This document shows, one piece after another, positions 17,170 through 38,573 of a DNA stretch of 60,244 nt. Every line of letters begins with the position of its first letter. Within the stretch, counting starts at the first letter, position 1. This DNA is from Candidatus Cloacimonadota bacterium (GTDB lineage Bacteria; Cloacimonadota; Cloacimonadia; JGIOTU-2; B8-G9). A program made the translations under genes and the position numbers. The notes beneath the pieces are model-generated. The model was not told where the DNA came from, did no database searches, and worked only from the letters and a program-made list of their open reading frames with translations. Where the stretch lies: positions 1 to 60,244 of the forward strand of contig QMNM01000001.1 in assembly GCA_003647765.1 (NCBI GenBank), written 5' to 3'.

Positions 17170-17449
17170 TATAGTTCTTAATCTTCCAAGCTAAATAATC
17201 TTCATTCTGGATTGCAAATCGGATCACTTGTGGAAGATCATCTGTGGCTATTTCATTAAGAAACTTTTTCAGGATTGCTTTGACCTTATATGTCATAGGA
17301 ACTAAATCGCTGGCAAGCCCTTCTACTTTGTGAGCCAAAACCCAAAATTTAACCAAATCTTTTTCTTTCCAACCTTTGCTTTTATACAATTTGATAAGGG
17401 ATCTCAAAGATTCTTCTCTGTCAACGGAAGGCAACCTTAAAACTTTCAT
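17099..17449 (-). CDS. Hypothetical protein, first gene of a leftward transcription unit.
   Basis: The ATG at 17449 has a GAAGGAGGG SD. A promoter lies just upstream. Confidence 0.55.
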   Translation of the reverse strand: MKVLRLPSVDREESLRSLIKLYKSKGWKEKDLVKFWVLAHKVEGLASDLVPMTYKVKAILKKFLNEIATDDLPQVIRFAIQNEDYLAWKIKNYNGSLVSFCFNYGKIYRRFKNDED

Positions 17450-17472
17450 TCCACCCTCCTTCGTTTTTCAAT

Positions 17473-17501
17473 TATATAACATCAGTATTTGTTTTTGTCA
17501 A
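17473..17501 (-). promoter_or_regulatory. Sigma70-like leftward promoter.
   Basis: On the minus strand the sequence reads TTGACA, 17 nt, TATATA(AT), about 25 nt upstream of the 17449 start. Confidence 0.6.
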
Positions 17502-17553
17502 TATCAAAAATAAAAATTTTGATTTTCTTTTCAAAATATGTTAGAAAGAAAGT

Positions 17554-17823
17554 ATGCAAGAGTTAATTCCAGGATTCCCACCTTTTCCGCTTGAGAAAAA
17601 AGTTAGGAGAGAGACAAAACTTTTCTGGACTTTCTTTGCAAGATGTCCGAAGGTTGATAATTTTTGTATCTACTATCGTCCTGCGTGGAGAAGATGTATG
17701 TTGTTGAAGGACAATAAGGGTAGGGAAGGGCGACCGATTAAGCAAGTAAAAGAATGTCCAGATGAATACGGATTCAAGTTTGGTCCTTCTGCATATAGAA
17801 AGATATATGAACCTTTAGATTGA
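17554..17823 (+). CDS. Hypothetical Cys-rich basic protein. It is the only plus-strand gene inside the leftward replication block.
   Basis: 89-codon ORF with a weak SD. Its TGA stop is the first triplet of a palindrome copy. Confidence 0.4.
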   Translation: MQELIPGFPPFPLEKKVRRETKLFWTFFARCPKVDNFCIYYRPAWRRCMLLKDNKGREGRPIKQVKECPDEYGFKFGPSAYRKIYEPLD

Positions 17824-17834
17824 AAACGTTTTCA
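17821..17834. promoter_or_regulatory. Palindrome, perfect copy, intergenic.
   Basis: Its TGA is the stop codon of 17554..17823. Confidence 0.95.
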
Positions 17835-17848
17835 CTCTAAAAATTAAA

Positions 17849-17868
17849 ACCCCCTCATTTGAGGGGGT
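17849..17868 (-). terminator. Intrinsic terminator for leftward transcription, placed after the AAA+ gene.
   Basis: Stem CCCCCTC/GAGGGGG with loop ATTT. On the minus strand it is followed by TTTTAATTTTT. Confidence 0.65.
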
Positions 17869-17934
17869 CGGAAGAAGGAGGGGAAGGAGGACTTTTGGGT
17901 ATCAGTTATATTTTACTGTTTTTTGTTTGAATAG

Positions 17935-19461: not shown

Positions 19462-19510
19462 ATCTCCCTCCTTTTTATAGCCCCAGCATAGAGCTGGGGC
19501 ATTTGTTTGC

Positions 19511-19843
19511 TTATAGAGAGCGGTATCTTACATAGAAGAACTCAAAATCATCTTCTCCTACTTCCTTTCCTTTGTCTGCGGGATTGCTAACCCTGTATTT
19601 CAATTTCATAACCAGCATCTCATCTCCATCATTTAAATCAGTTTCCGCTCTATTAAGTGGAACTTCTATTCCTGTCCATTTTCTTATTAACTCAACATTC
19701 TGCGGATACCCTATATAAGACTCTAACTCACCCCTTTTGTGGGCTTTTTGGAGCAAGAGCTTAAACTCCTGAAAAGAAATTTTGTATGCAGAATACTGCC
19801 CTTCCTTTGGCATTACTGCAGAATTTAACAACTTTACTGCCAT
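19511..19843 (-). CDS. DUF1874-like protein (family of the AcrIII-1 viral ring nuclease). By-eye assignment.
   Basis: LLNSAVMP..., ...YIGYPQNVELI..., ...LNRAETDLNDGDEMLV... match my memory of the DUF1874 pattern. Confidence 0.5.
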   Translation of the reverse strand: MAVKLLNSAVMPKEGQYSAYKISFQEFKLLLQKAHKRGELESYIGYPQNVELIRKWTGIEVPLNRAETDLNDGDEMLVMKLKYRVSNPADKGKEVGEDDFEFFYVRYRSL

Positions 19844-19957
19844 GATAAACCTCCTTTTTTGGTTTTTATCCGCAAGGGATTATTTTGCACTCTTTACAAT
19901 TCTTGAACGGGCAGATGGAGCACTCACTTAAATCCATATCCACCTGCCCGTTCTCTC

Positions 19958-20131
19958 CTATTCGGAGACAGATATAATGCAATCTGTCTCCGTCAGATCT
20001 TCTTGTTCCAGAATTATTCCTAGTCTGTCTGTAATTTGCCTTATTGGTTCTCTGCATTCTTCCCCCCAAAAATTTTGCCCTTCTATTCTTACTTCCCCGT
20101 TTTCTTTGATTTCAATTTTAATTACAGGCAT
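19958..20131 (-). CDS. DUF2997-like small protein (57 aa). It is not in the supplied ORF track.
   Basis: Hand translation gives MPVIKIEIKENGEVRIEGQNFWGEECREPIRQITDRLGIILEQEDLTETDCIISVSE. An AAGGAGGG SD lies 5 nt upstream of the ATG at 20131. Confidence 0.6.
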   Translation of the reverse strand: MPVIKIEIKENGEVRIEGQNFWGEECREPIRQITDRLGIILEQEDLTETDCIISVSE

Positions 20132-20142
20132 GTATCCCTCCT

Positions 20143-20403
20143 TTATAGTTGTATAAAAATTGTGTTTTCTTTCTGTTCTACTATACCATTAACGAAATTT
20201 GATAAATAATCTGCAACAATACCAGTCAATTTTTCCGTATCCATATTATCGTATTTTACATATCCGTTATCATCTACATAAATAGGAGCGAACAAGCCTT
20301 GCCCAGTTATACGACCATTTTTCACTTTAAATCCTTTGCGTCTGGCACTTTCTAAAAACAAATTCTTTTCTACCTTTAGGCTTAATTTTACTCTTTGAGA
20401 CAT
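20143..20403 (-). CDS. DUF1257 (Ycf35)-like protein.
   Basis: N-terminus MSQRVKLSLKVEKNLFLESARRKGFKV. The size and its adjacency to a DUF2997-like gene fit the family. Confidence 0.45.
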   Translation of the reverse strand: MSQRVKLSLKVEKNLFLESARRKGFKVKNGRITGQGLFAPIYVDDNGYVKYDNMDTEKLTGIVADYLSNFVNGIVEQKENTIFIQL

Positions 20404-20421
20404 AATGACCTCCTTTATCTT

Positions 20422-20877
20422 TTACCACCAAAGTTTTTTATTGGATTTCTTTAATATCTTTAATTCTTCTTTTCCTTTAGTGAAAATGTTTTCAATGTTT
20501 CCTTCTACAAAGAACTTGGTTTTCGTATGGACTATTTTCTTATAACTAGCTTTCTTGCTCACCTTTGCTCCCACAATAGTCGCAGAATAAGGATGCCCAA
20601 ATACTATAAATACAATTCTCATCACGATCCAGATTCCGTCTGGAAGCCATACCGCCATCTCTCTACTGTTCATGTAAGGATACTCGTTTACAGGACGCAA
20701 GTATTCTATTTCGTCTGCAAGGAATCGGTAATTTATATAAGCATTCCACTCCGACAGCCTTATTGCGTTCTTTGGCAAAGTATTTGCTTTCCCTATCGCT
20801 ACTCGCAAGCTCCTTTCCGTATCCAGCGTATATGTTCCACAAAAAAACCTTATTTTATTCTTCATTGAACAATTCAT
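20422..20877 (-). CDS. Hypothetical protein.
   Basis: ORF in the operon. It contains a variant palindrome copy read as ENIF. Confidence 0.5.
   Translation of the reverse strand: MNCSMKNKIRFFCGTYTLDTERSLRVAIGKANTLPKNAIRLSEWNAYINYRFLADEIEYLRPVNEYPYMNSREMAVWLPDGIWIVMRIVFIVFGHPYSATIVGAKVSKKASYKKIVHTKTKFFVEGNIENIFTKGKEELKILKKSNKKLWW
20481..20494. repeat. Palindrome variant (TG centre), inside CDS 20422..20877.
   Basis: Read as E-N-I-F. Confidence 0.9.
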
Positions 20878-21466
20878 TTTCCAACTCCTGCCTATTTACC
20901 AGAAATTCTTGGCAAATATATTCTAATGCAGAACTAACACTTTCTACTCCTATCTCTTTCTTCGCTCTTTCCACTGCGGATATTATCACATCATACTGGT
21001 CGTTTTTCAACTTCAGGGTCAAAGTGGTAGTCTTTTCTTCCCTTCCGCCCACTTTCTCTTTTCGCTGTTTAATTTCAGCCTCTAATTCCCTAAAAGACAT
21101 AGAAGGAGCTTTTTTTAATAACTCCTTTATATCTTCAATAGACTCTAATTTTGCTATTTCTTTTAATTTAGTCCATGAAATTTCCATAACCACTTGTCGT
21201 GGGAGATCAAATCGCTCTATAAATTCTCCAATCTGGGCATACCACAACCCTACTCTATAAGGAATGCCCAGATCCTCCTCTATCCATTCCCTAAACTTTG
21301 AGAATCCCCAATTCACAAACAGTTCTTCCTTCTTAACCTGATACACTTTTAAGTAAAGATCATACTTTTTTTCATCTATTTCCCGCAACAACTCTTTTAT
21401 CTCCTCTCGGATTGTCTTCTTTACTTGTTTTGTCTTCTTTGTGGAAAGTTTTTTACTCATCTCCAA
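20855..21466 (-). CDS. Hypothetical protein, possibly DNA-binding (helix-turn-helix-like segment).
   Basis: FSKFREWIEEDLGIPYRVGLWYAQIGEFIERF. The similarity judgement is weak. Confidence 0.45.
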   Translation of the reverse strand: MEMSKKLSTKKTKQVKKTIREEIKELLREIDEKKYDLYLKVYQVKKEELFVNWGFSKFREWIEEDLGIPYRVGLWYAQIGEFIERFDLPRQVVMEISWTKLKEIAKLESIEDIKELLKKAPSMSFRELEAEIKQRKEKVGGREEKTTTLTLKLKNDQYDVIISAVERAKKEIGVESVSSALEYICQEFLVNRQELENELFNEE

Positions 21467-21827
21467 CCTCCTTTATTTTCTTTAAGGAGTAACGGAAATA
21501 ACCTGTTGTTTTCTTAATATACTCCTGTAGCTCCGTCTGCGGTATGTATTTTTTCACCGCAGATGTTACAGTAACAACTTTCACAAAATCCTTTTTTAAT
21601 CTCTTTGCGACCTTTACAGGGTCATATTCCGCCCGCTCACTGTAAGAAATCGTCAGCTTAAACCTCTCTCCATAATAAGTTCCTTCTTCCTGCGGAAGAA
21701 GGGCTTTTAACTTTTCTTTTTCTTCATTTAATTTTTTTATCTTCTGATCAATCTCTCCATATTTATCAATTAATTTTTTCAAATCAACCTTCTGTCCGTT
21801 TTTCCTTCCATTATTTTTCCTTGCCAT
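21453..21827 (-). CDS. Hypothetical coiled-coil protein.
   Basis: ORF with a good SD. Confidence 0.5.
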   Translation of the reverse strand: MARKNNGRKNGQKVDLKKLIDKYGEIDQKIKKLNEEKEKLKALLPQEEGTYYGERFKLTISYSERAEYDPVKVAKRLKKDFVKVVTVTSAVKKYIPQTELQEYIKKTTGYFRYSLKKIKEVGDE

Positions 21828-22117: not shown

Positions 22118-22125
22118 GAAAAAGT

Positions 22126-22153
22126 TTGAAAATTTTTTCAAATTTATTATAAT
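22126..22153 (+). promoter_or_regulatory. Sigma70-like rightward promoter for the terS block.
   Basis: TTGAAA, 16 nt, TATAAT. A palindrome copy starts 7 nt downstream of the -10. Confidence 0.65.
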
Positions 22154-22159
22154 TGTCAG

Positions 22160-22173
22160 TGAAAACGTTTTCA
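22160..22173. promoter_or_regulatory. Palindrome, perfect copy, between the -10 element and the terS SD.
   Basis: It starts 7 nt after TATAAT and ends 12 nt before AAGGAGG. Confidence 0.95.
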
Positions 22174-22199: not shown

Positions 22200-22676
22200 A
22201 TGAAATATTATTTGCCACCACCAAGAGAGTTCACAGATGAAGAATTGGAAGGTTTTGACAAACTTGGAGAGAAGGTCAAGAAGTTTGCCCACTATTATTT
22301 GACTACAAGGAAGCCTGTATCTTCTGCAATAAAGGCTGGGTTTAGTAGGGAGAAGGCAAGGTCAGCTGCGAATCGCTTACTCCAGAACAAGAAAGTCCGA
22401 AGGTATATTGAATATCTCAAAGCACAAATGAGACAGATGGCAGAAGTGGATAGGGATTATATTGTGTTAAAGCTCAAGGAGATTGTAGAGAAAGAGAATG
22501 CATCAGATCAGGTCAAGATTTCGGCATTGAATACGCTGGCAAAGATCGGAGGCTTTCTCCAAGATTCAAAGCCTCCGCAAACTTTCGTGTTAAATGTGAT
22601 AGGGCTAGATGAGGAAAAAGATAAAGTGAAGGAAGTTGGAGTGAGTGTTCAATTTGACAAGGTTGATAAAATTTAA
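22200..22676 (+). CDS. terS: Terminase small subunit.
   Basis: KFAHYYLTTRKPVSSAIKAGFSREKARSAANRLLQNKKVRRYI matches the Terminase_2 HTH pattern (NATKAAI.AGYS...A...). Confidence 0.8.
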   Translation: MKYYLPPPREFTDEELEGFDKLGEKVKKFAHYYLTTRKPVSSAIKAGFSREKARSAANRLLQNKKVRRYIEYLKAQMRQMAEVDRDYIVLKLKEIVEKENASDQVKISALNTLAKIGGFLQDSKPPQTFVLNVIGLDEEKDKVKEVGVSVQFDKVDKI

Positions 22677-22716
22677 GTGAAAGCAAAAAAACAAAACCAA
22701 AAAAAGGAGGGGAGTT
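22638..22716 (+). repeat. Conserved cassette leader, copy 1. It overlaps the terS 3' end.
   Basis: ggagtgagtgttcaatttgacaaggttgataaaat...gaaagcaaaaaaacaaaaccaaaaaaaggagggg. Confidence 0.8.
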
Positions 22717-22941
22717 ATGGCAAACTTTATAAGCAAAAGAGCACCTAAAAACTGGTATCCTTCACCGCACGAATGGGTAAAAGGAAAAAGTGGGAAGAAG
22801 GAGTATGTAGGAAGGGTTATCCCTTCCATCAAAAATGAGAAAAAACCTGCAATATTTAGGAAGGGGCGGGGGGTCTTCTGTTACATTTTGACTCCCGCAG
22901 GGAAAAGAGTGGCTGTTTATGAATTAGAGCCATTAACCTAA
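22717..22941 (+). CDS. Hypothetical protein.
   Basis: ORF with an AAGGAGGGG SD. Confidence 0.55.
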   Translation: MANFISKRAPKNWYPSPHEWVKGKSGKKEYVGRVIPSIKNEKKPAIFRKGRGVFCYILTPAGKRVAVYELEPLT

Positions 22942-22963
22942 ACTAAACAGAAGGAGGGGAGAT

Positions 22964-23473
22964 ATGATTTGTCCTGTATGTAATCTCAATTATCCTGATA
23001 GGCAGTGTCCTAGATGTGGCTGGAAGCCAGGGCACTGTCCTAACTGTGGTTTTGTTCTCATTAATGATGAGTGTTTTAGGTGCGGATTTAAACTCCTAAA
23101 AATTGAAAACGTTTTCACTCAAAAGGAGGGGAAAATGCTTAATTTAAGGCTAATTAACGAAGAAGGTAAAGAAAAAGAAATAACCGCATTAGATTTTGAA
23201 CATTTAGCAGAGAAGGTTTTTGATTTCTATTACAACGGTCAACCTAATTTCATCACTCCGCACATTTTAGAATACAGCCATAAACGGAATGGAAATAGAT
23301 TTCTGTTCGTAGAATTAAGTAAGGGAGAAGGGATTTATCATGAGCGGATATATGGAGTTACAGTTTTGGAAGGCAGACTAAAAGGGAACAAACTGTATCT
23401 GAAGCGGAGAATAGACAAAATGAAGTGTTTTAAGAATATCAATGAAGCCAAGACCTACATCAGAAGTTTATAA
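22964..23473 (+). CDS. Hypothetical protein with an N-terminal triple CxxC zinc ribbon. A second SD and ATG lie in frame at 23135.
   Basis: CPVC..CPRC..CPNC..CFRC. A palindrome copy plus AAGGAGGGG precede the internal ATG. Confidence 0.55.
   Translation: MICPVCNLNYPDRQCPRCGWKPGHCPNCGFVLINDECFRCGFKLLKIENVFTQKEGKMLNLRLINEEGKEKEITALDFEHLAEKVFDFYYNGQPNFITPHILEYSHKRNGNRFLFVELSKGEGIYHERIYGVTVLEGRLKGNKLYLKRRIDKMKCFKNINEAKTYIRSL
23104..23117. promoter_or_regulatory. Palindrome, perfect copy, before the internal SD and ATG at 23135.
   Basis: It ends 5 nt before AAGGAGGGG. It is also read as E-N-V-F in the long ORF. Confidence 0.95.
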
Positions 23474-23484
23474 AGGAGGGGGAG

Positions 23485-23853
23485 ATGAGACCAATAAAGC
23501 GAAGGTATTATAAAGTGATTATTGAGGAGTATTGTTGTAGGTGTCCACGAGAGGTCAATAAGATGGTTTTAAGCAATGTAATCGCAGAGACTTTTGAAGA
23601 CATGGAAGGGGTAGAATGGTTTTTGGAGGAGCGATACGGTAAGATTCCAAGAATAAAGAAACATAACCTTCTCTATGATGATGAGGAAAGGGAAGTTGGT
23701 TTTACTTATTCCTTCTGGAATAGGGATATTAGAGACTTCTCTACGAGATGGTGGCAAGTGGACTTCATTTTTATCTTTAAAGTGATAGAGGAAAGAGATC
23801 CTGTTCATAGGTTTTTACACAGACAAAAGAAAGTGAATGCAAAAGTTGCATGA
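23485..23853 (+). CDS. Hypothetical protein.
   Basis: ORF with an AGGAGGGGG SD. Confidence 0.55.
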   Translation: MRPIKRRYYKVIIEEYCCRCPREVNKMVLSNVIAETFEDMEGVEWFLEERYGKIPRIKKHNLLYDDEEREVGFTYSFWNRDIRDFSTRWWQVDFIFIFKVIEERDPVHRFLHRQKKVNAKVA

Positions 23854-23896
23854 TTTGTTAAAATAAAAACAAAAAACCAAAAAAAGGAGGGGAGAG

Positions 23897-24910
23897 ATGA
23901 AGCACTATTATTCAAATTACGAGCTTATAGAGATGTTCGTTGAGGGAAAAATCCCATCTGGAGAAGTAATTTATAGTTACAATGGAAATCTTACAGCGAT
24001 GGACAAGATTATTTGGACCTATAACTCTCCATTGGGAATAAAGAAAAACGGATTTATCTTAGTGAACGGTGATAATTACTCTTTTACTTCAAATAGGCAT
24101 AGAAACATGTTGCTAGAATGCACTAACACTAGAGGAACAGGGGTAGCGGTTTCATTTTCCGCTATTTCAAACCTTATAGAAGAGTTTGACTGGGACTTTA
24201 CTAGGAACTGGGATTCTGACGATAAGATTCCTGTATTACCGTTTAAAGCAAAGAGTGCATGGTTTGATTGGGTTGAGGTTATTGACTTTATACCTGATAA
24301 GCATGAATATCATGATTTTAAGTATGAGTGGAAAGCTGAAGAAAAAATGAAGGGGTATCCTGAAGATGTAAAAGTTTGTTTAGAGAGATTGAGGAAGAAT
24401 TACACAGCGACGGGAGTGAGTAAATCTAGGTGGAATGGTAAACTTATCTTTACTGTTTGGGGACACACAGCGGCGACAGTTCTCCTACGGATCAGAGGTC
24501 TGAATATCTTAGCTGGATTTGATGAAAGAAGTTATTACTGTTCTTTATTACCAAGTGGGGCTTGCACTGTAAAAGAAGCATTTGAGATATTAAAACCTGA
24601 ACCTGTAAAAAGAGCGGAAGCTGAAGGTAAGCAAGTTTTAAGACAAGGGGAATGGTTTTTTGTTAAAGTTGCGGACGATCCCAAAGAGATCGGGTTAAGA
24701 AATAAAGACTTTAAAAAGAGCTGGTTGCCATGCAGGAAGGGCGGAAGTCGGCACTGGTGCAGACTTCTCTATAAAGATGAGAAAATTTATGCTACTGGAT
24801 TAGTAAGGCACGAAGGTAGGGAACACAGGGCTTTGAAGCTGGACGGCATTTACCAAGCATATTACAATACGGCAATAATGAGTGTGAGTGCCGACTCCAG
24901 AGTTGACTAA
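23897..24910 (+). CDS. Hypothetical protein.
   Basis: 337-codon ORF with an AAGGAGGGG SD. Confidence 0.6.
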   Translation: MKHYYSNYELIEMFVEGKIPSGEVIYSYNGNLTAMDKIIWTYNSPLGIKKNGFILVNGDNYSFTSNRHRNMLLECTNTRGTGVAVSFSAISNLIEEFDWDFTRNWDSDDKIPVLPFKAKSAWFDWVEVIDFIPDKHEYHDFKYEWKAEEKMKGYPEDVKVCLERLRKNYTATGVSKSRWNGKLIFTVWGHTAATVLLRIRGLNILAGFDERSYYCSLLPSGACTVKEAFEILKPEPVKRAEAEGKQVLRQGEWFFVKVADDPKEIGLRNKDFKKSWLPCRKGGSRHWCRLLYKDEKIYATGLVRHEGREHRALKLDGIYQAYYNTAIMSVSADSRVD

Positions 24911-24945
24911 CTCCAAACTCCATATTCCACAAAATAAGCCAATAA

Positions 24946-24968
24946 CACCGCACCTTTTCGGTGCGGTG
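24946..24968 (+). other. GC-rich intergenic hairpin.
   Basis: Stem CACCGCACC/GGTGCGGTG with loop TTTTC. No T-run follows. Confidence 0.5.
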
Positions 24969-25022
24969 AATGTTCAAGTTGACAAGAAATTTAAAATAGA
25001 AGCAAAAAAAGGAGGGTTTGCT
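24964..25022 (+). repeat. Conserved cassette leader, copy 2.
   Basis: cggtgaatgttcaagttgacaagaaatttaaaatagaagcaaaaaaaggaggg. Confidence 0.8.
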
Positions 25023-25388
25023 ATGTTAAAGATTAAGTTTAAAAAAGTTTATATCTATGAGCCTGAATTGGGGAAAAAATATTGCTGCAGGTTATACGTG
25101 TATTTACCAGCCTGCAATAATTGCTTACTAAAAAAAGAACTATTAAGCGAAACCCAATTGTTGGGATCCGTTCTGCATGAAAATTGGGGAACTTTCATAG
25201 ACGAAAATGGCGAATACTGGCGACGAAAACATATCGTCTTGTTCGCAAAACATGGGTGGCAAGACCTACAACAACAGGTCAACGATGAAATAAAACATAT
25301 CATTAACCAGCTGAAAGAAATAGTAAACTTCAATAAGGAACAGGAACAAAAGAAACCTAGCGACGAGTCCCTTATAGTTGAAATATAA
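25023..25388 (+). CDS. Hypothetical protein, paralogue A of a tandem pair.
   Basis: The ATG at 25023 follows AAAGGAGGG. The N-terminus MLKIKFKKVYIYEP matches that of the next gene. Confidence 0.6.
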   Translation: MLKIKFKKVYIYEPELGKKYCCRLYVYLPACNNCLLKKELLSETQLLGSVLHENWGTFIDENGEYWRRKHIVLFAKHGWQDLQQQVNDEIKHIINQLKEIVNFNKEQEQKKPSDESLIVEI

Positions 25389-25396
25389 TAAACCGT

Positions 25397-25410
25397 TGAA
25401 AACATTTTTA
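25397..25410. promoter_or_regulatory. Degenerate palindrome TGAAAACATTTTTA, intergenic.
   Basis: It follows the stop of 25023..25388 and precedes the hairpin at 25414-25434. Confidence 0.7.
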
Positions 25411-25474
25411 ATCGGGCTACCACAACGGTAGCCCTAGACCTTACCTATAATTAAACCAAAAAAGGGGGTTGAAA

Positions 25475-25840
25475 ATGTTAAAGGTTAAAGTCAAAAAAAG
25501 TTACATTTATGATCCGACTCACAAAAGACCTTTTATTGGAATGTTAGAAGTATCCCTTCCAGCAGAAAAATGTTATATTAAAGAGCCTCTCAGGAAGTAT
25601 AAGGTTTATCTGTTTGACGAAGAATTACTTGAAAGCTGGGGTTGTTATACAGAAGATAAAGACGGTAAATGGAGATCCAGAACATATATCACCTACAAGT
25701 CTTCATGGGAAGAAGCAAAAGAAGATCTAAATAAAAAGACAGAAGAAGTGATAAACACCTTGCGTCAAATTTATAGAGAATATAAACAAAATGTCGAATC
25801 CGCTCCTAATGAAGAAGAAAACATCTATATCATAGAATAA
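25475..25840 (+). CDS. Hypothetical protein, paralogue B of the tandem pair.
   Basis: N-terminus MLKVKVKKSYIYDP. It has the same length as 25023..25388 and shares W.G...D..G.W and IN.L motifs. Confidence 0.6.
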   Translation: MLKVKVKKSYIYDPTHKRPFIGMLEVSLPAEKCYIKEPLRKYKVYLFDEELLESWGCYTEDKDGKWRSRTYITYKSSWEEAKEDLNKKTEEVINTLRQIYREYKQNVESAPNEEENIYIIE

Positions 25841-25845
25841 ATCAT

Positions 25846-25859
25846 TGAAAACATTTTCA
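25846..25859. promoter_or_regulatory. Palindrome variant (CA centre), intergenic.
   Basis: It follows the stop of 25475..25840 and lies directly before the terminator. Confidence 0.9.
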
Positions 25860-25861
25860 AC

Positions 25862-25890
25862 GGGCGGGCTTTTTGCCCGCCCTTTTTTTT
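25862..25890 (+). terminator. Intrinsic terminator.
   Basis: Stem GGGCGGGC, loop tttt, stem GCCCGCCC, followed by T8. Confidence 0.85.
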
Positions 25891-25923
25891 GCTCTCACTC
25901 TATAGACCTACGACCTAGCACAG

Positions 25924-26170
25924 CCTATATAGACTAATACTCCATTATAAATCTCTTAAAGAGATTTATAATGGGTATATGTCTATAAGGTCGTCAGCCT
26001 GTATAGACTTATATCCCATATAAAATATCTTAAAGATATTTTATATGGGTATTAGTCTATCAGGTCGGATATATACAGCTAGCACTATAGACGAGCACTC
26101 CACCCTTATATGTCTATATGCTATTATTAATTCTTTAAAGAATTAATAATAGCTATAAGACATATTAGGG
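25924..26170. repeat. Three tandem extended hairpins (25924-25990, 25998-26064, 26104-26170).
   Basis: Perfect inner palindromes of 33, 35 and 34 nt lie at 25942-25974, 26015-26049 and 26120-26153. They share the centre TCTT(T)AAAGA but have different arms. Their bases carry TATAGAC/GTCTATA. Confidence 0.9.
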
Positions 26171-26174
26171 CGGG

Positions 26175-26244
26175 CTGGAGTGAATGTCCAGGTTGACAGG
26201 TTTGATATACTGGAAGCAAAAAAACAAAACAAAGGGGGTCGCTT
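26175..26244 (+). repeat. Conserved cassette leader, copy 3.
   Basis: ctggagtgaatgtccaggttgacaggtttgatatactggaagcaaaaaaacaaaacaaaggggg. Confidence 0.8.
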
Positions 26245-26526
26245 ATGGAACTCATTATTAAAAGCATTGAAAAAATGTTCTTAAAGAGCGGGGAAAAATC
26301 TAGTAATGTGGACAAAGGAAAATTGATTGTAGATAGGGACAAATTGATTTATAAAAACGGTAAAGAGATTGAAGTAGAGCTGGAGCGGGTAGAAAAAGAA
26401 AAAAGTTATTCGTTATTATACGCAAGACTTGAATTAGAGGGCGGGATTGTTGCTCAATTAAATGTGTATGAATTGAAAAGAAAAGAAAAGAAAAATCAAC
26501 GAAAAAAATCCAGTAGCTTGATTTAA
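26245..26526 (+). CDS. Hypothetical protein.
   Basis: 93-codon ORF after AAAGGGGG. A terminator follows it. Confidence 0.5.
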   Translation: MELIIKSIEKMFLKSGEKSSNVDKGKLIVDRDKLIYKNGKEIEVELERVEKEKSYSLLYARLELEGGIVAQLNVYELKRKEKKNQRKKSSSLI

Positions 26527-26533
26527 AGTTGCA

Positions 26534-26565
26534 AGGGGCGGACAAAATGTCCGCTCCTTTTTTTT
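26534..26565 (+). terminator. Intrinsic terminator.
   Basis: Stem AGGGGCGGAC, loop aaaat, stem GTCCGCTCCT, followed by T8. Confidence 0.8.
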
Positions 26566-26639
26566 GCCCAAATAACCCCACCCCTATCGGACACAGGGGG
26601 GTTTATATAGGGGACGGGGCGGGGCTTTTTGTGAACCTC

Positions 26640-26935
26640 TCACAAAAATCCCGAATTTCAGAAAATCCCAAATTCTAGAAAATCCTAAACTTTTAAAAAT
26701 TCTAAATTTTAACTTTCTCACAAAAATCTTAAATTTCAGATGAACTTCTCACAAAAATCCTAAATTTCAGAAAATCTTAAATTTCACAAAAATCCTAAAT
26801 TTTGTAAAAATCTTAAATCTTGAATTTTGTAAAAATCCTGAATTTTAGAAAACCTTAAAATTGAAAAATCCCGAATTTCAGAAAATCTTGAATTTTGTAA
26901 AATTCTGAATTTAGGAAATCCTGAATTCTTCTATA
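26640..26935. repeat. About 15 contiguous degenerate 17-18-bp units with consensus AAAATCYYRAATTTYAG.
   Basis: Examples are aaaatcccgaatttcag, aaaatcccaaattctag, aaaatcctaaatttcag, aaaatcttaaatttcac and aaaatcctgaattttag. CTCACAAAAAT is interspersed three times. Confidence 0.85.
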
Positions 26936-26980
26936 AGGAATTTTAAGAGTTTTTATATAGGGAGAGTTTTTGGGTAGGGA

Positions 26981-27000
26981 AGCCCGCAGGTGGGCGGGCT
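26981..27000. other. GC-rich hairpin immediately before the twin palindrome copies.
   Basis: Stem AGCCCGC, loop aggtgg, stem GCGGGCT. GGGCGGGCTGGAGTGAA (26992-27008) is identical to 26168-26184. Confidence 0.6.
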
Positions 27001-27004
27001 GGAG

Positions 27005-27018
27005 TGAAAACGTTTTCA
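27005..27018. promoter_or_regulatory. Palindrome, perfect copy, first of a twin pair.
   Basis: Its start is 29 bp from the start of its twin (15-bp gap). It lies at the convergent junction. Confidence 0.95.
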
Positions 27019-27033
27019 ATCCGTCCCTGCCAG

Positions 27034-27047
27034 TGAAAACGTTTTCA
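27034..27047. promoter_or_regulatory. Palindrome, perfect copy, second of the twin pair.
   Basis: It ends 3 nt before the stop of the 27050 gene. Confidence 0.95.
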
Positions 27048-27049
27048 AT

Positions 27050-27595
27050 TTAAACAGTTACATAAGACGCACCATAGTAAATTTTGTCGTCTCTATTAAT
27101 CTTAATTACCCGCACATCGTTTTTTATCCCGTCCAGCATCCGCTCTAAACAATGATGAATAAAAAATCCGTCCCGATCATCATACCCATCAGGCAACTCA
27201 TATAACAAAATTACATCATATAACTTGTCCACAGACTCAACACATTTCCTTGCCTGCACAAAATATTCCGCAAGAAAAGGATACTTCGCTACCTGTAAAA
27301 GAATATAGGAGAAAACATCAAATATCGTCCTGTCCGCTACAAAACTGGGCATCGTCCTTACACAAAATAAATAAGATAAAAGAATCGCTGACTCAAACCT
27401 TGCCCACGAAACTAAATCCTCCTTCGCTGGATTCCTCCAGTTAAAATGAGTTAATTTCAATAAATCCCTCGCAAACTCTGGAATCAATGGTAAATCAGAA
27501 ATTCTGCTTAACTTTGTAGCAAGCGTGGTCTTCCCTACTCCATGTGCTCCAGAAATACCAATTCTTTTATACTCACTTAAATCTAAAACCTGCAT
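27050..27595 (-). CDS. P-loop NTPase (AAA_28/NadR-like kinase pattern).
   Basis: IGISGAHGVGKTTLATKL. The start was moved to the ATG at 27595, preceded by AAGGAGGG and a palindrome copy. Confidence 0.6.
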   Translation of the reverse strand: MQVLDLSEYKRIGISGAHGVGKTTLATKLSRISDLPLIPEFARDLLKLTHFNWRNPAKEDLVSWARFESAILLSYLFCVRTMPSFVADRTIFDVFSYILLQVAKYPFLAEYFVQARKCVESVDKLYDVILLYELPDGYDDRDGFFIHHCLERMLDGIKNDVRVIKINRDDKIYYGASYVTV

Positions 27596-27612
27596 ATTAC
27601 CCTCCTTTTCAG

Positions 27613-27626
27613 TGAAAACGTTTTCA
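27613..27626. promoter_or_regulatory. Palindrome, perfect copy, upstream of the SD of 27050..27595 (minus strand).
   Basis: It lies 5 nt from AAGGAGGG. Confidence 0.95.
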
Positions 27627-27833
27627 ATGTTTGAGTTTGAATCTCGGCACAAGTTTGCCATTATAAAATACAACTTCTTCCCACATAGAAAGCGGTCTCG
27701 CCCACACAACATCAGGACTCCTTATATCATGATAAATTACCATATCTTCCTTCGTCTCCGTATGCTTCGCAATACACAAAACTTTATACAAACCTCCTTT
27801 AAAATGCTTATAAATCCTCCCAACTTTTACCAT
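27624..27833 (-). CDS. DUF1653-family protein.
   Basis: YKHFKGGLYKVL..AKHTET.E.MVIY......VWARPLSMW.E......VPRF. Confidence 0.7.
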   Translation of the reverse strand: MVKVGRIYKHFKGGLYKVLCIAKHTETKEDMVIYHDIRSPDVVWARPLSMWEEVVFYNGKLVPRFKLKH

Positions 27834-27845
27834 CCTTTCCCTCCT

Positions 27846-28334
27846 TTAAATCCCAGTCTGCCCAATCCCTCCTCTATTCTCATTTAACAACCTTTCAACT
27901 TCAATAAACTCAATCTTCTCCATATTCTTTATTATTCGGAATTGACAGAGTCGGGCATATAAAGGAACAAAAGTCCCTCTGGTCGCATAAGCAAGAAAAT
28001 GCCAAATATCATCATCTCCACAATAAGAATTATCAATAACCGCAGGAGGATTCGTCTGCTGTAAACCATATCTTCCAAATGTAGAAGACCTTGCCACAAT
28101 CCATGCTTCATGTCCTTGTGGTAATTCTATAGAAACTCCAAGCCCAAATTTTACATACTCTCCCCCACCAATAAACCAACCTTTCTGTTTCTCTCCATTA
28201 ATTTCCCATTCAACAGGTTTCCGTTCTTTCTCATCTATAATCAATTTTGTCGCATACAAATCAATCCAGTCTCCTTTCTCTATAACTTTCAATCTGGGCA
28301 TTGAAGGATCATGATATTTAACTTTTATCTTCAT
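27846..28334 (-). CDS. dut: dUTPase.
   Basis: KGDWIDLYA, IELPQGHEAWIVARSS, AVIDNSYCGDDD, LCQFRI. Confidence 0.8.
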   Translation of the reverse strand: MKIKVKYHDPSMPRLKVIEKGDWIDLYATKLIIDEKERKPVEWEINGEKQKGWFIGGGEYVKFGLGVSIELPQGHEAWIVARSSTFGRYGLQQTNPPAVIDNSYCGDDDIWHFLAYATRGTFVPLYARLCQFRIIKNMEKIEFIEVERLLNENRGGIGQTGI

Positions 28335-28693
28335 CGGATAGCCTCCTTTACAACCAGAGACTCTAAAATGTTCTCTACTATCAAATAAAGCCTGTAATTA
28401 TCTTTCAAAACCACATCGCTTACTTTCATTCCCATGATTTCTTCAATAGGGAATCCGACCATATCCATGATTCCATGTGCCGTGTCCACAATCACAGTAG
28501 AATTGATAAAAACCAGCTTATTTTTATTTTCTTCATATTCTCCATTCTTCGCATCAAGCAAAATCCTGATCGCATCGTCTATTCTTTCTTTATACGCTTC
28601 ACTTCTCCTGCTCAAACTCTCCTTCGCTACATTTAAATTTGCAGAAAGCATATTCTTCTTTTCCATATAGTCTAAACATTCCTTTACTGTCAT
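28331..28693 (-). CDS. Hypothetical protein.
   Basis: ORF in the operon with overlapping stop and start. Confidence 0.5.
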   Translation of the reverse strand: MTVKECLDYMEKKNMLSANLNVAKESLSRRSEAYKERIDDAIRILLDAKNGEYEENKNKLVFINSTVIVDTAHGIMDMVGFPIEEIMGMKVSDVVLKDNYRLYLIVENILESLVVKEAIR

Positions 28694-29118
28694 AATTCCC
28701 CCCGCAAAGTTTTGACTAATACTCTAGTTAAATTATTGATTCCGTAATAATATGCTCCGTTCCTATCCCGATACCATACAGTCCGCACAAGACTTTCTCT
28801 AATGTCAATATGCCACCCTGGATTGTTCCAGAATGGATAAAACCCAATTGCTCCTATTTTTCTAAATTGGGACAATAAACAAAATTGCTCTAAATAGGAA
28901 AATCTATCTGGACTCACTTTCCAATGAAAATCCACTGCCATTCCTTTATAATGGAGTGATTTAGGAGAGTGCCCGCTGTCGTCCCACGCAACATGGATTA
29001 TAATCGGAAACCCAGACGCTTCTCTTATTTCATCCATCAGAAATACAAGGGAAGGAATAACTTTGTCGGGATCTTTCCTGAATTCTTCTTTTTTAAAATG
29101 TTTTACTCTCTCCCACAT
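28690..29118 (-). CDS. Peptidase M15-type peptidoglycan hydrolase (endolysin candidate).
   Basis: HFKKEEF, SGHSPKSLHYKGMAVDFH and GWHIDIR form a His/Asp/His Zn-ligand pattern. The ATG at 29118 follows AAAGGAGG. Confidence 0.7.
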   Translation of the reverse strand: MWERVKHFKKEEFRKDPDKVIPSLVFLMDEIREASGFPIIIHVAWDDSGHSPKSLHYKGMAVDFHWKVSPDRFSYLEQFCLLSQFRKIGAIGFYPFWNNPGWHIDIRESLVRTVWYRDRNGAYYYGINNLTRVLVKTLRGEL

Positions 29119-29164
29119 AAAATCCTCCTTTAATTTAAAATGATGTTGTGCAAAGAAAAGCAAA

Positions 29165-29760
29165 ACTCAACAATGCCACAGCAAGGGATTGGTAAACTTG
29201 GCACTGCCGTTGCCGCTCCTTACGAAACAATGCCTATGCTACTCTTTACGAAACAACACCTATCCTTACGAAACAGCACCTATGCTGCTCCTTACTGAAC
29301 TATACCCTGGCGATTCCTTACAAAACAATGCCTCTGCGATTCCTTGCCATACTAAACCTACGCCGAACACAACGATACTGCACTTAACCCCTGCCTATAC
29401 AACGCTACGCATTGTAGCACACCGCCCTTGCTATGATATTCAGTGCTTTGCCAATGCAAAACTTCTTGAAGCATTGCTCCGCCTTTGCTAAACCTGACTC
29501 TGCTAATCTCTGCCTCTGCTATACCTAGCCACTCCTTACTACTCATCACCACTGCTGGACAACTCATTACTTTCCGTCGCTTCACCGTTGCGAAACTAGG
29601 TATTACTTCGCCATTGCAAATCAGCACTCTACTTGACCATGCCTTTCCATTGCGTCCCACAACCCAACCATACAGAGCAATACCATAGCTTAACGGCACA
29701 GCACTAAACCATCGCCCGACTGGGCAACGCCTCTGCTCTGCAAAAATATACTATACGATG
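29165..29760. other. Non-coding island of roughly 600 bp. The plus strand is G-poor and C-rich, with degenerate roughly 26-bp repeats. Candidate ncRNA or cis element.
   Basis: In 29221-29280 I count 19 C and 6 G. Repeats of CCTTACGAAACA.. occur at 29216-29345. The three overlapping ORFs here have no SD and an atypical amino-acid composition. Confidence 0.7.
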
Positions 29761-29766
29761 CCATTA

Positions 29767-30390
29767 CTACTTAACTCTTTCCCAAGTAAATCTTCCATAC
29801 CCACCATTTCTCCATTGCCCTAGTCCCTTCAGTTTTCCATAATCCAGCAATGTTTCTATTACTTTCCAATTCAATTCTTTATGTGGAAGAAGGGCTATTT
29901 CTATTTCAAATTCAACAGGATCAATAAAATCGGAACTGATTAATGAAACTCTAGGACCTTGTGGAGTGTTGGCACGCAGAGACCGCTCTAATCTTCCATC
30001 AGGCTTCTCTTTCAACCAGATATATCGTGGAAAAACAAACACATAATTGTCAATCTTGCTCCGCAAGTTCTTTATTTTCAGTATATCTTTCAACACATTC
30101 CCAGCTTCTTTCAGGAAACCTTTGATATGATAATCCATTAAATAAACTCCATCAGCGTCAGTGTAGAAACCAGTTTCTCCCTGCCCTTCAGGAGCTAATT
30201 TCTGTTCTATCTGCATCTGCATTTCTTGCTCATCTAACTGCTCTGGATCAGCATCCATTAAATCTTCTTCCTTTCCATAATACTTTGCCTGAACATATCT
30301 TGTGAAAACTTTTAAATCTTTAGGGATACTGCCCAGCAATTTCTCAATCAAAATGATTTTATACTTTCTCTTATCCATCTCTATACCCAT
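29767..30390 (-). CDS. RAMP/Cas6-like protein. Tentative.
   Basis: The C-terminal GLGQWRNGGYG (29794-29826) fits the Cas6 glycine-rich loop pattern GhGxxxxxGhG. HIKGFLKEAG resembles the RAMP ..KG.lR.. motif. The N-terminal strand is KYKIILIEKLLG. Confidence 0.35.
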   Translation of the reverse strand: MGIEMDKRKYKIILIEKLLGSIPKDLKVFTRYVQAKYYGKEEDLMDADPEQLDEQEMQMQIEQKLAPEGQGETGFYTDADGVYLMDYHIKGFLKEAGNVLKDILKIKNLRSKIDNYVFVFPRYIWLKEKPDGRLERSLRANTPQGPRVSLISSDFIDPVEFEIEIALLPHKELNWKVIETLLDYGKLKGLGQWRNGGYGRFTWERVK

Positions 30391-30401
30391 CACGCCCTCC
30401 T

Positions 30402-30857
30402 TTAAAAATATTTTTCTATCAAATCCAAATCTTTTAAAGCCTCATCCATATAACTTTCAGCATTGATTTCTGGATCAAAGTAGAGATAAATATTGAACAG
30501 ATGCTCAAGAATTTTGCCGAAATAGGCAAACTCAAACCTGTTCCTGACCGACGACCAGATGTCATCTCCTAATGCCAGCAGAAAATTCAAATAATACCTG
30601 ACATCAAACTCTTTCTTACTTTTCTTCACATCTTCAAAAAATTCTTCTGCCTTCTTGCTAGTAATCGCAAGCTCTTTTCCTAAATCTCCCTTGAATGTAG
30701 CATAGAGATACTCCCGAAGTCTATCTCTCCTTCTCTTGATTGCATTTAACCATGCCCAAACTTTAATAGGGAGATGCTTCTGCCTGAACATTTCAATGAA
30801 GGCTTCATCAGATAGGCAGGCAAGATAGAAGAATTTACGCTGATCTTTGCGTGCCAT
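30402..30857 (-). CDS. Hypothetical helical protein.
   Basis: The ATG at 30857 follows GGAAGGAG and a variant palindrome copy. Confidence 0.55.
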   Translation of the reverse strand: MARKDQRKFFYLACLSDEAFIEMFRQKHLPIKVWAWLNAIKRRRDRLREYLYATFKGDLGKELAITSKKAEEFFEDVKKSKKEFDVRYYLNFLLALGDDIWSSVRNRFEFAYFGKILEHLFNIYLYFDPEINAESYMDEALKDLDLIEKYF

Positions 30858-30871
30858 CTCCTTCCCCTTAT

Positions 30872-30885
30872 TGAAAACATTTTCA
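30872..30885. promoter_or_regulatory. Palindrome variant (CA centre), upstream of the SD of 30402..30857 (minus strand).
   Basis: It lies 6 nt from GGAAGGAG and abuts the stop of the 30886 gene. Confidence 0.9.
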
Positions 30886-31134
30886 CTACAACTTTTTCTT
30901 CTTATACTTCCTTGCCATGTTCACTTTTCTCAATCTAACACTCTTTGGCTCTTTATAATGCTTGGACAACTTCTTCCTGCCCTTCGCAGTCAAATCCAGC
31001 GTCCCTTTTTTCAAATATCCCAACTTTTGCCAATGTCCAACAATAATCCTATACGCTTCCTCTCTTGGAATCTTTTTCTCTCTCATTAAAGCTGCGACAG
31101 CATGCTCTACTGGTTCTGGAACTTTCTTTCCCAT
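30886..31134 (-). CDS. Small basic protein.
   Basis: 82-codon K/R-rich ORF. Confidence 0.5.
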   Translation of the reverse strand: MGKKVPEPVEHAVAALMREKKIPREEAYRIIVGHWQKLGYLKKGTLDLTAKGRKKLSKHYKEPKSVRLRKVNMARKYKKKKL

Positions 31135-31207
31135 CCCTTCACCCCTTTTTGTTAATGTTTACTTTAATTACTAATTTTAAAAATGTCAATACTAAAATTT
31201 TAATTTT

Positions 31208-31414
31208 TTATTTTCTCTTACTCAATTTTCTCAAAGTAAGAGCAAGTCTTGCTTTTCTCGCAACCCTTCCACTTCCTTTTGCTTTCTTTCTCAACCATGA
31301 AACTTTGATTGTTCCATCAGGATTCAATGCTCCTTCTCTCTTTGCAATTGCCCGCAGAGACCCTGGTCTCTTAATTGCCTTCTGAATCCATTTGTTATCT
31401 TTCTTCTTTGCCAT
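31208..31414 (-). CDS. Small basic protein, first gene of the leftward block.
   Basis: The ATG at 31414 follows AAGGAG. N-terminus MAKKKDNKWIQKAIKRPGSLR.... Confidence 0.5.
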   Translation of the reverse strand: MAKKKDNKWIQKAIKRPGSLRAIAKREGALNPDGTIKVSWLRKKAKGSGRVARKARLALTLRKLSKRK

Positions 31415-31832
31415 TTTTCTCTCCTTTTTCTGATCTTCCGAAATTATTTCCAATTTTCCAAAAATATCTCCGATTTTTAAAAATTATTCCCAATCCTATC
31501 AAAATATTCCCAAATCTCCAAAATTCTAAAATTTTCTCCTTTTTTCTGATTTATTTACCAAAATCCCTGATTATTTTCAATCTCCAAGTATTGAGCAGGG
31601 AATCAAAAATTTTGACATTAACAAAAAGTTTACATAATTCTCCGTCGGCGTGCTAGGTCGTATTAGTGTATTGATAAAGACGGGAAAATTTGTTTTTGTT
31701 TTCAAAAAGTTGTAGAGAATCCCTACTAGAAAATTCCAATTAGAGTCAAAAAATTAATTTTTGCAAAAAGTTTTTCAATTTTTCTCAAAATTTCTCAAAA
31801 TTTCTTCACAAAGCTCAATGTCAGTTCAGATA

Positions 31833-31855
31833 GCCTTAAGCCTTAAGCCTTAAGC
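31833..31855. repeat. Tandem heptamer (GCCTTAA) x3.
   Basis: gccttaagccttaagccttaagc. Each junction creates CTTAAG. Confidence 0.9.
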
Positions 31856-31899
31856 AGACCAAAATAAACCACGAGTTCTGGAAAGAAAAGAAAAGTGCA

Positions 31900-31978
31900 T
31901 CTCTAAATAAAATATTAAAATATTTTATTCAGAGACTTATAGTAAAATATAGACATTTACATGTCTTATATTTTACTA
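31900..31978. repeat. Two adjacent AT-rich hairpins. The second carries TATAGAC/GTCTTATA.
   Basis: 31900-31935 reads tctctaaataaaatatt..aatattttattcagaga. 31940-31978 reads tagtaaaatatagacat-ttac-atgtcttatattttacta. Confidence 0.75.
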
Positions 31979-32259
31979 AAGGCAAAAGAAAAGAAAGATA
32001 AACAACTAAATAAAACTAAAAATAAAAAAATATATAAATAGCCCTAGCACTATACCCTTAAGCCATTTTTTATTTTACTTTCAATTTTTGTAGGGAGACA
32101 CTTGATTTCTCCTATAAACCATTGAAAAATAAAGTTTCGCTGGAAATTTTTGATTTTGTCAGTTTAAATTTGAAATGTTGGTAAGGCAGAGAAAGCAACG
32201 CTTCCTGTTGTTTGATTTTGTCAAAAATGAAATTTCTCTATTTTTTATTGAAGTTGTTA

Positions 32260-32288
32260 TTGACAAAATGATTTTTGTGTATTATTGT
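32260..32288 (+). promoter_or_regulatory. Sigma70-like promoter of the structural (rightward) operon.
   Basis: TTGACA, 17 nt, TATTGT, about 20 nt before the ATG at 32309. Confidence 0.6.
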
Positions 32289-32308
32289 TAAGGAAAAAGG
32301 AGGTGGGC

Positions 32309-32659
32309 ATGGAAGAAAAATTGCGGAATAAGTTGATTGACTGGTATTACAAAGAAGGGCTTTCTCCTGGAGAGATTGCGGACAAGATTGGGAGGAGCAG
32401 GTCTGCGGTTTATTTTTTGCTTCGCAAGTATGGTCTTCCATTGAGAGGAGATGAGAAGGGAAGGAAATTGTTATCTCCTGCCTGTCCGAAGTGTGGCTCT
32501 CATGAAGCGATTACGCTAGTGTCTGCGAATGGAGGGAGTGAAATTATCCGCTACCGAATTTGTAGAAAGTGCAAGTATAAGTTCAGAACAAAGGAGGTGA
32601 TAATTGGAAGGGCAGATAGCGATAGTGGAGACATGGTCTCCAGCAAACAGGACTCTTGA
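32309..32659 (+). CDS. HTH plus zinc-ribbon DNA-binding protein (candidate transcription regulator).
   Basis: GLSPGEIADKIGRSRSAVYFLLRKYG is the HTH. CPKCGS...CRKCKY is the ribbon. The start is the ATG at 32309 after AAAGGAGGTGGG. Confidence 0.6.
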   Translation: MEEKLRNKLIDWYYKEGLSPGEIADKIGRSRSAVYFLLRKYGLPLRGDEKGRKLLSPACPKCGSHEAITLVSANGGSEIIRYRICRKCKYKFRTKEVIIGRADSDSGDMVSSKQDS

Positions 32660-38545: not shown

Positions 38546-38556
38546 AAACATTTTCA
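38543..38556. promoter_or_regulatory. Palindrome variant (CA centre), intergenic.
   Basis: Its TGA is the stop of 38201..38545. It ends 4 nt before AAGGAGGG. Confidence 0.9.
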
Positions 38557-38573
38557 ATCAAAGGAGGGTTCTG

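Follow-up and report, generated by a model that had tools for sequence, protein, structure and literature searches.

We describe a tandem array of 15 short cores in the non-coding space that separates two convergent operons in a complete phage genome. The array is tentatively read, at a probability of about 0.4, as a row of candidate binding sites that would act at the DNA level and be occupied by a dimeric protein, with replication control as the likeliest role. This reading rests on the fixed position of the array in five lineages, with the same boundaries despite turnover of the units, on a conserved core combined with free linker and spacing, on low duplex stability, and on the terminators to the left and the trailer of the minus-strand operon to the right. 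Replication is considered the likeliest role because validated repeat arrays of phages and satellites are most often origins or control sites; taken by itself, the replication role is rather doubtful. Both the binding of a protein to the array and the process that it would serve we infer.

The stretch of DNA analysed here (the window, 60,244 bp) is the entire contig C1 of a metagenome bin (1.97 Mb). Positions 1–123 and 60122–60244 carry the same 123 bases, from which we conclude that the phage genome is complete and corresponds to a circle of 60,121 bp. The two end-truncated open reading frames (57084–60242 and 2–5302) join in frame to a single gene of ~2,780 codons, for which no family match was obtained. 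In ORF scans against Pfam and PHROG the recognizable genes of the window were phage genes only. The terminase small subunit gene terS (22200–22676) is of the Terminase_2 (PF03592) type. The portal protein is 31% identical to that of Rhizobium phage RHph_TM3_14A and 26% identical to those of HMO-2011-type phages, and terL is 40–45% identical to its counterparts in Vibrio VA-RY-3, Cronobacter Ss1 and BcepC6B. The phage is a distant relation of the HMO-2011-like podoviruses. The RpoC of the bin has its best match, with just 69% identity, in a Cloacimonadaceae genome and therefore places the host loosely. A different contig of the bin (G000, C85) contains a Rep3_N-domain protein at 1701–2051 (404-aa open frame) and is possibly a plasmid fragment. 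For the operon blocks and the features of the convergent junction see Table 1.

Table 1. Operon blocks of the phage and features in and around the convergent junction (window coordinates).
Feature	Position	Strand or direction	Description and basis
Replication block	5289–21827	leftward	family-A DNA polymerase, methyltransferase, Cas4-like exonuclease, UvsX/RecA-like recombinase, T7 endonuclease I-like protein, helicase, primase, DnaB-like helicase, AAA ATPase
terS block	22200–26526	rightward	Terminase_2-type terS, then small uncharacterised genes
Gene of 93-aa protein with lysine-rich tail	26245–26526	+	last of rightward block; ORF list
Intrinsic terminator T1	26533–26567	+	12-bp stem (26533–26559), then T8; terminator scan, RNA fold
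Long imperfect GC-rich hairpin, then TTTTT	26566–26630	+	C-runs paired with G-runs
Inverted repeat TTTTTGTGA-ACCTC-TCACAAAAA	26626–26648		from terminator tail to first unit; first CTCACAAAAAT box inside
Array	26645–26928		15 cores, 16–18-bp spacing, three longer intervals, 109-bp higher-order duplication
Right boundary word GAATTCTTCTATAAGGAATT	26925–26945		imperfect inverted repeat
Two 17-bp units, AGAGTTTTTATATAGGG / AGAGTTTTTGGGTAGGG	26946–26980		Tandem Repeats Finder
GC hairpin AGCCCGC-N6-GCGGGCT	26981–27000	−	leftward operon trailer; fold; kept in relatives
Two TGAAAACGTTTTCA palindromes	27005–27018, 27034–27047		just past the kinase gene's stop codon
AAA_28 / NadR-like P-loop kinase gene	27050–27712	−	last of leftward block
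Kinase-end block	27050–31414	leftward	P-loop kinase, dUTPase-like gene, peptidase M15-like lysin
Structural block, long	from 32285	rightward	terL, portal, capsid

A fuzzy parse of the array yielded 15 cores matching AAAATCYYRAATTT (consensus RAAAATC-YT-RAWTTT). They start at 26645, 26662, 26679, 26696, 26723, 26754, 26771, 26789, 26807, 26832, 26849, 26865, 26882, 26899 and 26915, which corresponds to spacings of 17, 17, 17, 27, 31, 17, 18, 18, 25, 17, 16, 17, 17 and 16 bp. Tandem Repeats Finder reported period-17 arrays at 26644–26712, 26754–26927 and 26815–26912 together with a higher-order period of 109 bp (2.4 copies, 26632–26895). With at most one mismatch, AAAATCYYRAATTT matched 14 times within 26645–26912 and once elsewhere in the window; shuffled windows gave 1.66 ± 1.39 matches and none of 100 shuffles reached 15. 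The tandem array of about 15 units described in the initial annotation, made from the DNA letters, is thus confirmed. Its description as contiguous and free of spacers holds for 11 of the 14 intervals (16–18 bp) and fails for the three long ones, each of which encloses either a CTCAC box or an incomplete unit. A box had also been said to interrupt the array three times, and exact copies of CTCACAAAAAT were indeed found at 26639, 26717 and 26748 and nowhere else in the window. The second and third copies sit in the 109-bp duplicated block, which copies the left boundary of the array, TGAACYTCTCACAAAAATC.

Each unit contains two A/T tracts, and the array as a whole is 77% A+T. Since the 17-bp period does not divide by three and every unit contains stop codons, the array is non-coding. 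Elsewhere in the phage the motif is no more frequent than expected by chance (22 matches at up to two mismatches, 21 expected). The related motifs formerly noted at 31440–31830 come down to a single site at this threshold (31520–31534), and the claim of motifs shared between the two non-coding regions is not supported.

The array is located in a gap of 523 bp (26527–27049), the only convergent operon junction of the phage. With the operons arranged in this way, little transcription should cross the array. The rightward operon ends in T1, and the long GC-rich hairpin that follows reads as a second terminator, possibly a bidirectional one. The RNA fold of 26520–26650 has an energy of −52.9 kcal/mol (z = −5.4), and the second hairpin (26566–26630) is kept in all relatives. 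The bracket of G-runs and GC hairpin reported for the left side accordingly proved real, as a canonical terminator with its T8 tract and a long GC hairpin with T5. A G-quadruplex reading of the left G-runs was rejected, since these runs pair with the upstream C-runs in a terminator-like hairpin. For the inverted repeat between terminator tail and first unit (26626–26648), a conserved hairpin is not supported, because the relatives carry no compensatory changes.

The gene of the 93-aa protein adjoins the array in every relative that extends this far. Homologues of the protein are 72–100% identical and confined to this clade. The protein gave no family match and, in a sequence search, no PDB match; its AlphaFold model (pLDDT 48) is unusable.

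On the right, the part TTCTATAAGGAA of the boundary word is kept in four of the five lineages. The word TTATATAGGG is present at 26603 too and is not enriched genome-wide. A T7-like promoter based on TATATAGGGAGA was considered and dropped, as the word is not enriched. The GC hairpin at 26981–27000 is not followed by a T-run on the minus strand. Together with the TGAAAACGTTTTCA palindrome it forms a leftward-block trailer that also follows other genes of the phage, and at the position of the twin palindromes L018 and L017 have one copy. Palindrome TGAAAACGTTTTCA occurs 26 times in the genome (0.6 expected). The right bracket of the initial annotation thus stands as far as the GC hairpin and the twin palindromes exist, but the palindrome is a genome-wide element and not specific to the array. 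It is also found in gene trailers preceding terminators (25846, 27005, 27034). A further copy begins 6 bp past the −10 box of the terS promoter, at about +1; this promoter, within 22125–22173 upstream of terS, is sigma-70-like (TTGAAA-N16-TATAAT).

Relatives of the junction were obtained as independent metagenome contigs, reached via homologues of both flanking genes, the kinase gene included. Samples containing the phage or relatives of it are ERZ27227322, ERZ27248090, ERZ27248286, ERZ27262656, SRR21462135, GCA_053938045.1 and JGI 3300021494. They represent five lineages: the window with L198, L196, L197, L018 with L019, and L017. L198 is the same phage in a separate assembly and shows the same 15 units with one C-to-T change. 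At 62,106 bp, the L198 contig is ~2 kb longer than the genome circle; the excess could imply a terminal redundancy of ~1,985 bp (window 38449–40433 if there are no indels) or could be a strain bubble. L196 (flanking-protein identity 95%) has 8 units, L197 (85%) has 9, and L018, which equals L019 (72–87%), has 7–8. L017 (86%) has 10–11 units of a 15–16-bp variant, AAAATCCTGATTTT; its contig also carries an extra 105-aa gene (3239–3556) between the right flank of the array and the kinase gene. In all five sampled lineages (5/5) an array of 7 to 15 units thus occupies this position. The left boundary is identical in the relatives (TTTTTGTRAACYTCTCAYAAAAA), as is the right flank, where the GC hairpin is followed by GTGAAAAC[A/G]TTTTCAAT. 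The lineages differ in the array by gains and losses of whole units. Units that can be aligned are 0.84–0.95 identical and the matching flanks 0.84–0.99. By its sequence, the window array reads as a first block of the L018 type fused to an array of the L196 type, which suggests unequal recombination. Loss or high variability of the array among otherwise syntenic relatives had been named beforehand as one part of what would speak against the proposed roles. The outcome is mixed: no sampled relative has lost it, yet the copy number ranges from 7 to 15.

An alignment of 49 units from the five lineages defined the core as a 15-bp imperfect dyad, AAAAT-N4-AWTTT. The left A-run is conserved in 47–49 of the 49 units and the right half in 43–46, except for the W position (35/49). 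Changes at the centre are transitions (C/T, A/G). The linker of 2–3 nt carries 0.3–0.5 bits, and units range in length from 15 to 18 bp. In L017 the variant AAAATCCTGATTTT is more symmetric and homogenised. A conserved core with a free linker would be the pattern expected for a site that is read by a dimer and that imposes no phase between sites. Part of the pattern could be mutational, as it is the C/G positions that vary, in a way compatible with decay of CCCG. The relatives are also close (flanks 84–99% identical), which makes the shared presence of the array weak evidence of selection.

The more distant relatives L021, Rhizobium phage RHph_TM3_14A and L200–L203 have no comparable array. 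Near and distant DNA searches of a phage collection returned no match to the array, searches of viral contigs for relatives by single proteins returned nothing close, host genomes of the same order contained no copy, and scans of metagenome and viral contigs with the boundary sequences of the array found none. A scan with a two-unit pattern gave 91 metagenome matches, mostly satellites of the low-coding, AT-rich sample Ga0208946. Matches in viral contigs and genomes were few, with 2–3 units each, and those in L012 are coding. A homologue of a window protein was present at none of the two-unit-pattern loci. The Ga0208946 matches come from dozens of short, low-coding contigs (L025–L110, 24–36% GC) with long look-alike arrays (GAAAATCTCAATTTT, CAAAATCCCAATTTTTGAC and others), probably a eukaryotic satellite family unrelated to the phage.

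The comparison bears directly on the strongest alternative, a near-neutral variable-number tandem repeat. In this case an AT-rich word prone to slippage would have expanded in a gap whose one requirement is to keep two sets of terminators apart, with no specific partner and a length free to drift. We consider this unlikely, if still a substantial possibility. Whole-unit insertions and deletions leading to 7–15 copies are in keeping with drift, yet at least seven units are present in all five lineages of a compact phage genome. Similarly, the alignable units are just as identical as the flanks and the changes at the centre are compatible with C-to-T and G-to-A decay, but the A/T positions of the core are kept far better than the linker. 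The duplication of the 109-bp block and the resemblance of the window array to an L018-type block plus an L196-type array also favour a neutral repeat, whereas L017 keeps the same dyad core after turnover and the boundaries are fixed in every lineage. Finally, look-alike AT-rich satellites are common, the Ga0208946 contigs being an example, and the array is missing beyond the close clade.

A packaging signal or genome end, that is, a pac loading array, the zone of the virion termini or of a terminal repeat, or an iss-like injection pause, has a slight chance only. Well-known pac sites are located in or beside terS. In SPP1 the terS product, G1P, assembles with repeated boxes and A-tracts into a multi-subunit nucleoprotein complex, and we take this protein to belong to the Terminase_2 (PF03592) family. 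The terS found here is of the Terminase_2 (PF03592) type as well, which speaks for packaging; the array, however, lies 4 kb downstream of terS. In P22 and SPP1, pac is in or beside the gene (PMC9611059). The array is in this respect unlike known pac sites, and the earlier suggestion of a pac array is disfavoured. The iss of T5 consists of non-coding direct repeats and palindromes (bioRxiv 10.1101/866236), and three long palindromes do lie 470 bp to the left of the array, but the paired DnaA boxes of the T5 iss are missing and no bend is predicted for the regular array. The circle with its 123-bp overlap shows no sign of ends at the array, being itself uninformative on ends, and the independent contigs of the relatives continue across it.

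Only one 250-bp segment of the genome is less stable than the array (top 0.04%), which is clamped on both sides by GC-rich hairpin sequences. Curvature was predicted with two wedge models using parameters after those of the dnacurve package. For the regular array this gave an end-to-end ratio of 0.96–0.98, equal to the genome mean, and an irregular part near 26691 is moderately curved (0.87–0.89). In both models the most curved DNA of the genome is found at 31461–31600 and 31701–31850 (0.67–0.75). The former segment contains a 20-bp repeat with A/T tracts in 10-bp phase and lies immediately upstream of the leftward operon. The tracts of the array, in contrast, recur every 8.5/17 bp, out of phase with the helix, and their spacing varies between lineages. 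The earlier proposal of intrinsically bent DNA is not supported, the regular array being predicted as nearly straight.

These data leave a poor chance for a role in DNA mechanics or topology, either as curved DNA or as a site for wrapping by a nucleoid protein or gyrase that relieves supercoils of the convergent operons. The location at a convergent junction, the two A/T tracts per unit and the very low duplex stability would suit such a role, and so would the very basic 68-aa protein of the phage with its weak match to fusellovirus VP2. The ratio of the regular array, with no more than moderate curvature near 26691, the off-phase tract spacing that varies between lineages, and the truly curved DNA elsewhere, at 31461–31600 and 31701–31850, all argue against it. 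The 68-aa protein is encoded by the first gene of the leftward operon (31208–31414, minus strand); its match to the VP2 DNA-binding capsid family scored 25.4 bits, just below the cut-off of 27.

The second large non-coding region, at 31.4–32.3 kb, has a flavour in common with the array region, but motif and geometry differ. Divergent promoters are found here together with the lowest duplex stability and the strongest curvature of the genome, and the cumulative GC skew reaches its minimum. The least stable 250 bp of the genome (31882–32130) coincide with this minimum and are the best origin candidate by classical criteria. The GC skew tracks coding orientation and is uninformative about replication, and a by-block analysis of coding-strand skew fits no single origin. 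Within the region, 31880–32040 is 82% A+T. Near-perfect inverted repeats (31900–31935 and 31940–31978) are located in the least stable segment, between the divergent operons. The first gene of the late block (32285–32659, plus strand) encodes a helix-turn-helix and an NrdR-like zinc ribbon, which makes its product a candidate transcription regulator of the phage.

RNA folds of the array are unremarkable (z = −1.3 and −2.4), and an Rfam search of 26527–27049 gave only a chance-level match, on the terminator. The Nop domain (PF01798) had no match in the whole assembly, while control genomes did match. TIGR arrays consist of two alternating 8–12-nt repeats with 9-nt variable spacers in a 36-nt unit (PMC12045711). 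An array of the TIGR or CRISPR type was rejected on the grounds of the 17-nt unit, the lack of spacers and of a Nop protein, and variation confined to 3–4 central positions, by transitions. A function of the array as RNA, be it a TIGR/CRISPR/VIPR-type guide-RNA array or a sponge for an RNA-binding protein, is thus hardly credible: the minus strand shows AGGA or GGGA in about half of the units and the trailer hairpin without a T-run makes read-through into the array possible, but there are no 9-nt variable spacers, alternating repeats, 36-nt units, Nop-domain proteins or Rfam matches, the folds do not stand out, two terminators block entry from the left, and variability is greatest at the GGA positions.

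We also looked for proteins that might read the array. Six-frame searches of the phage contig gave no match to Rep3_N and, in a search run without a positive control, none to RepA_N; Pfam and PHROG scans revealed no initiator among the phage ORFs. The absence of an obvious initiator gene, remarked upon earlier, holds for these searches. DnaA boxes were not found near the array. A ParB is lacking on the phage (ParB_N matches host contig C142 only), and the scans revealed no ParA- or ParM-like gene among the neighbouring ORFs, which speaks against the partition-like array also suggested in the initial annotation. A decoy for a host regulon was rejected, as the motif is no commoner in host contigs than control words with swapped centres.

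For the row of binding sites, read as a cis-acting DNA element rather than a gene, an RNA or a device of curved DNA, we propose the following mode of action. Each array would offer 7–15 independent docking sites, each of them a 15-bp imperfect dyad. Dimers would occupy neighbouring sites in large numbers on AT-rich, easily opened DNA, with the GC-rich hairpins acting as clamps on either side of the array. The array may act in an iteron-type initiation or in the control of initiation. Iterons of RepA_N-type initiators usually take the shape of semi-palindromic direct repeats (PMC7145576). Among the findings that count against the proposal, the copy number of 7–15 with whole units coming and going is unusual for origin iterons, and the region at 31.4–32.3 kb looks more like a classical origin.

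Measured against iterons, the array has the tandem direct repeats of ~17–22 bp (15 cores, period 17). A cognate initiator gene is found neither in the array nor next to it. The array is itself of low stability, and a separate AT-rich unwinding element is not present. Neither the helical phasing of ~11/22 bp nor a stable copy number is seen (15–18 bp, 7–15 copies). The iteron-like loading array first envisaged is a reasonable candidate reading, in keeping with the dyad core, fixed position, insulation on the left and easy melting; its use as an origin is disfavoured by the missing Rep_3 and RepA_N proteins and DnaA boxes, by the unphased spacing and by the classical features at 31.4–32.3 kb. 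A bolder version, to which we give little credence, combines the array, the GC clamps, the trio of long self-complementary palindromes located 470 bp to the left and the lysine-tailed 93-aa protein, whose gene lies between palindromes and array, into one undescribed cis/trans module of this phage clade. Such a module would be a landing strip free of transcription for a phage protein that loads with tolerance of copy number and spacing and starts or meters replication or concatemer processing without a known initiator family.

To our knowledge, origins, packaging sites and other cis-acting signals are undescribed for almost all uncultured phages, the HMO-2011-like podoviruses included. The array is a clean candidate for such a signal, with a sharp 15-bp core, natural alleles of 7–15 copies and a variant core in one lineage, and the candidate binders are few: the 93-aa protein, the basic 68-aa protein, the helix-turn-helix and zinc-ribbon protein (32285–32659), terS, and the uncharacterised 181-aa and 116-aa products encoded upstream of DnaB. 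Should one of them prove to be the partner, array and protein would constitute a new pair of site and protein. If there is no partner, the array would be a well-documented instance of a repeat maintained by a compact phage genome although nothing reads it specifically, and would caution against naming every repeat array an origin.

Several known systems resemble the array in part. The pac of SPP1 overlaps the 5' end of terS, is intrinsically bent, and consists of repeated boxes and A-tracts. The likeness lies in the Terminase_2-type terS, given the membership assumed above for G1P (for an overview of TerS and pac see PMC9611059). The array differs in being 4 kb downstream of terS and in the predicted straightness of its regular part. 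The T5 iss (bioRxiv 10.1101/866236) has in common with the array a large untranslated zone of a virulent phage, direct repeats with palindromes, and a conserved place. It comprises nine DRD copies and paired DnaA boxes inside a 10-kb terminal repeat, whereas the array has no DnaA boxes and the phages are unrelated.

The parC sites of R1 and pSK41 and the omega heptad arrays of pSM19035 are contiguous repeats bound by proteins of the ribbon-helix-helix or ParR type. The array is like them in its contiguous repeats, its tolerance of copy number and the side-by-side loading of dimers proposed here. It is unlike them in lacking a ParA/ParM motor or adaptor nearby and a ParB, and the phage shows no sign of a plasmid lifestyle. 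Iteron systems such as lambda ori, P1 oriR/incA and the RepA_N iterons of the PLE satellite (PMC7145576) have 3–9 units with a helical phasing of ~11/22 bp inside or beside a rep gene. The array, in contrast, has 15 units spaced by 15–18 bp at a convergent junction, its copy number varies between close relatives, and it has no adjacent or detectable initiator gene and no DnaA boxes. Common to both are head-to-tail repeats of ~17–19 bp, imperfect dyads around A/T tracts, AT-rich and easily melted DNA, and action at the level of DNA. Among phage cis-elements the array belongs to a known kind, of which it is a clade-specific member.
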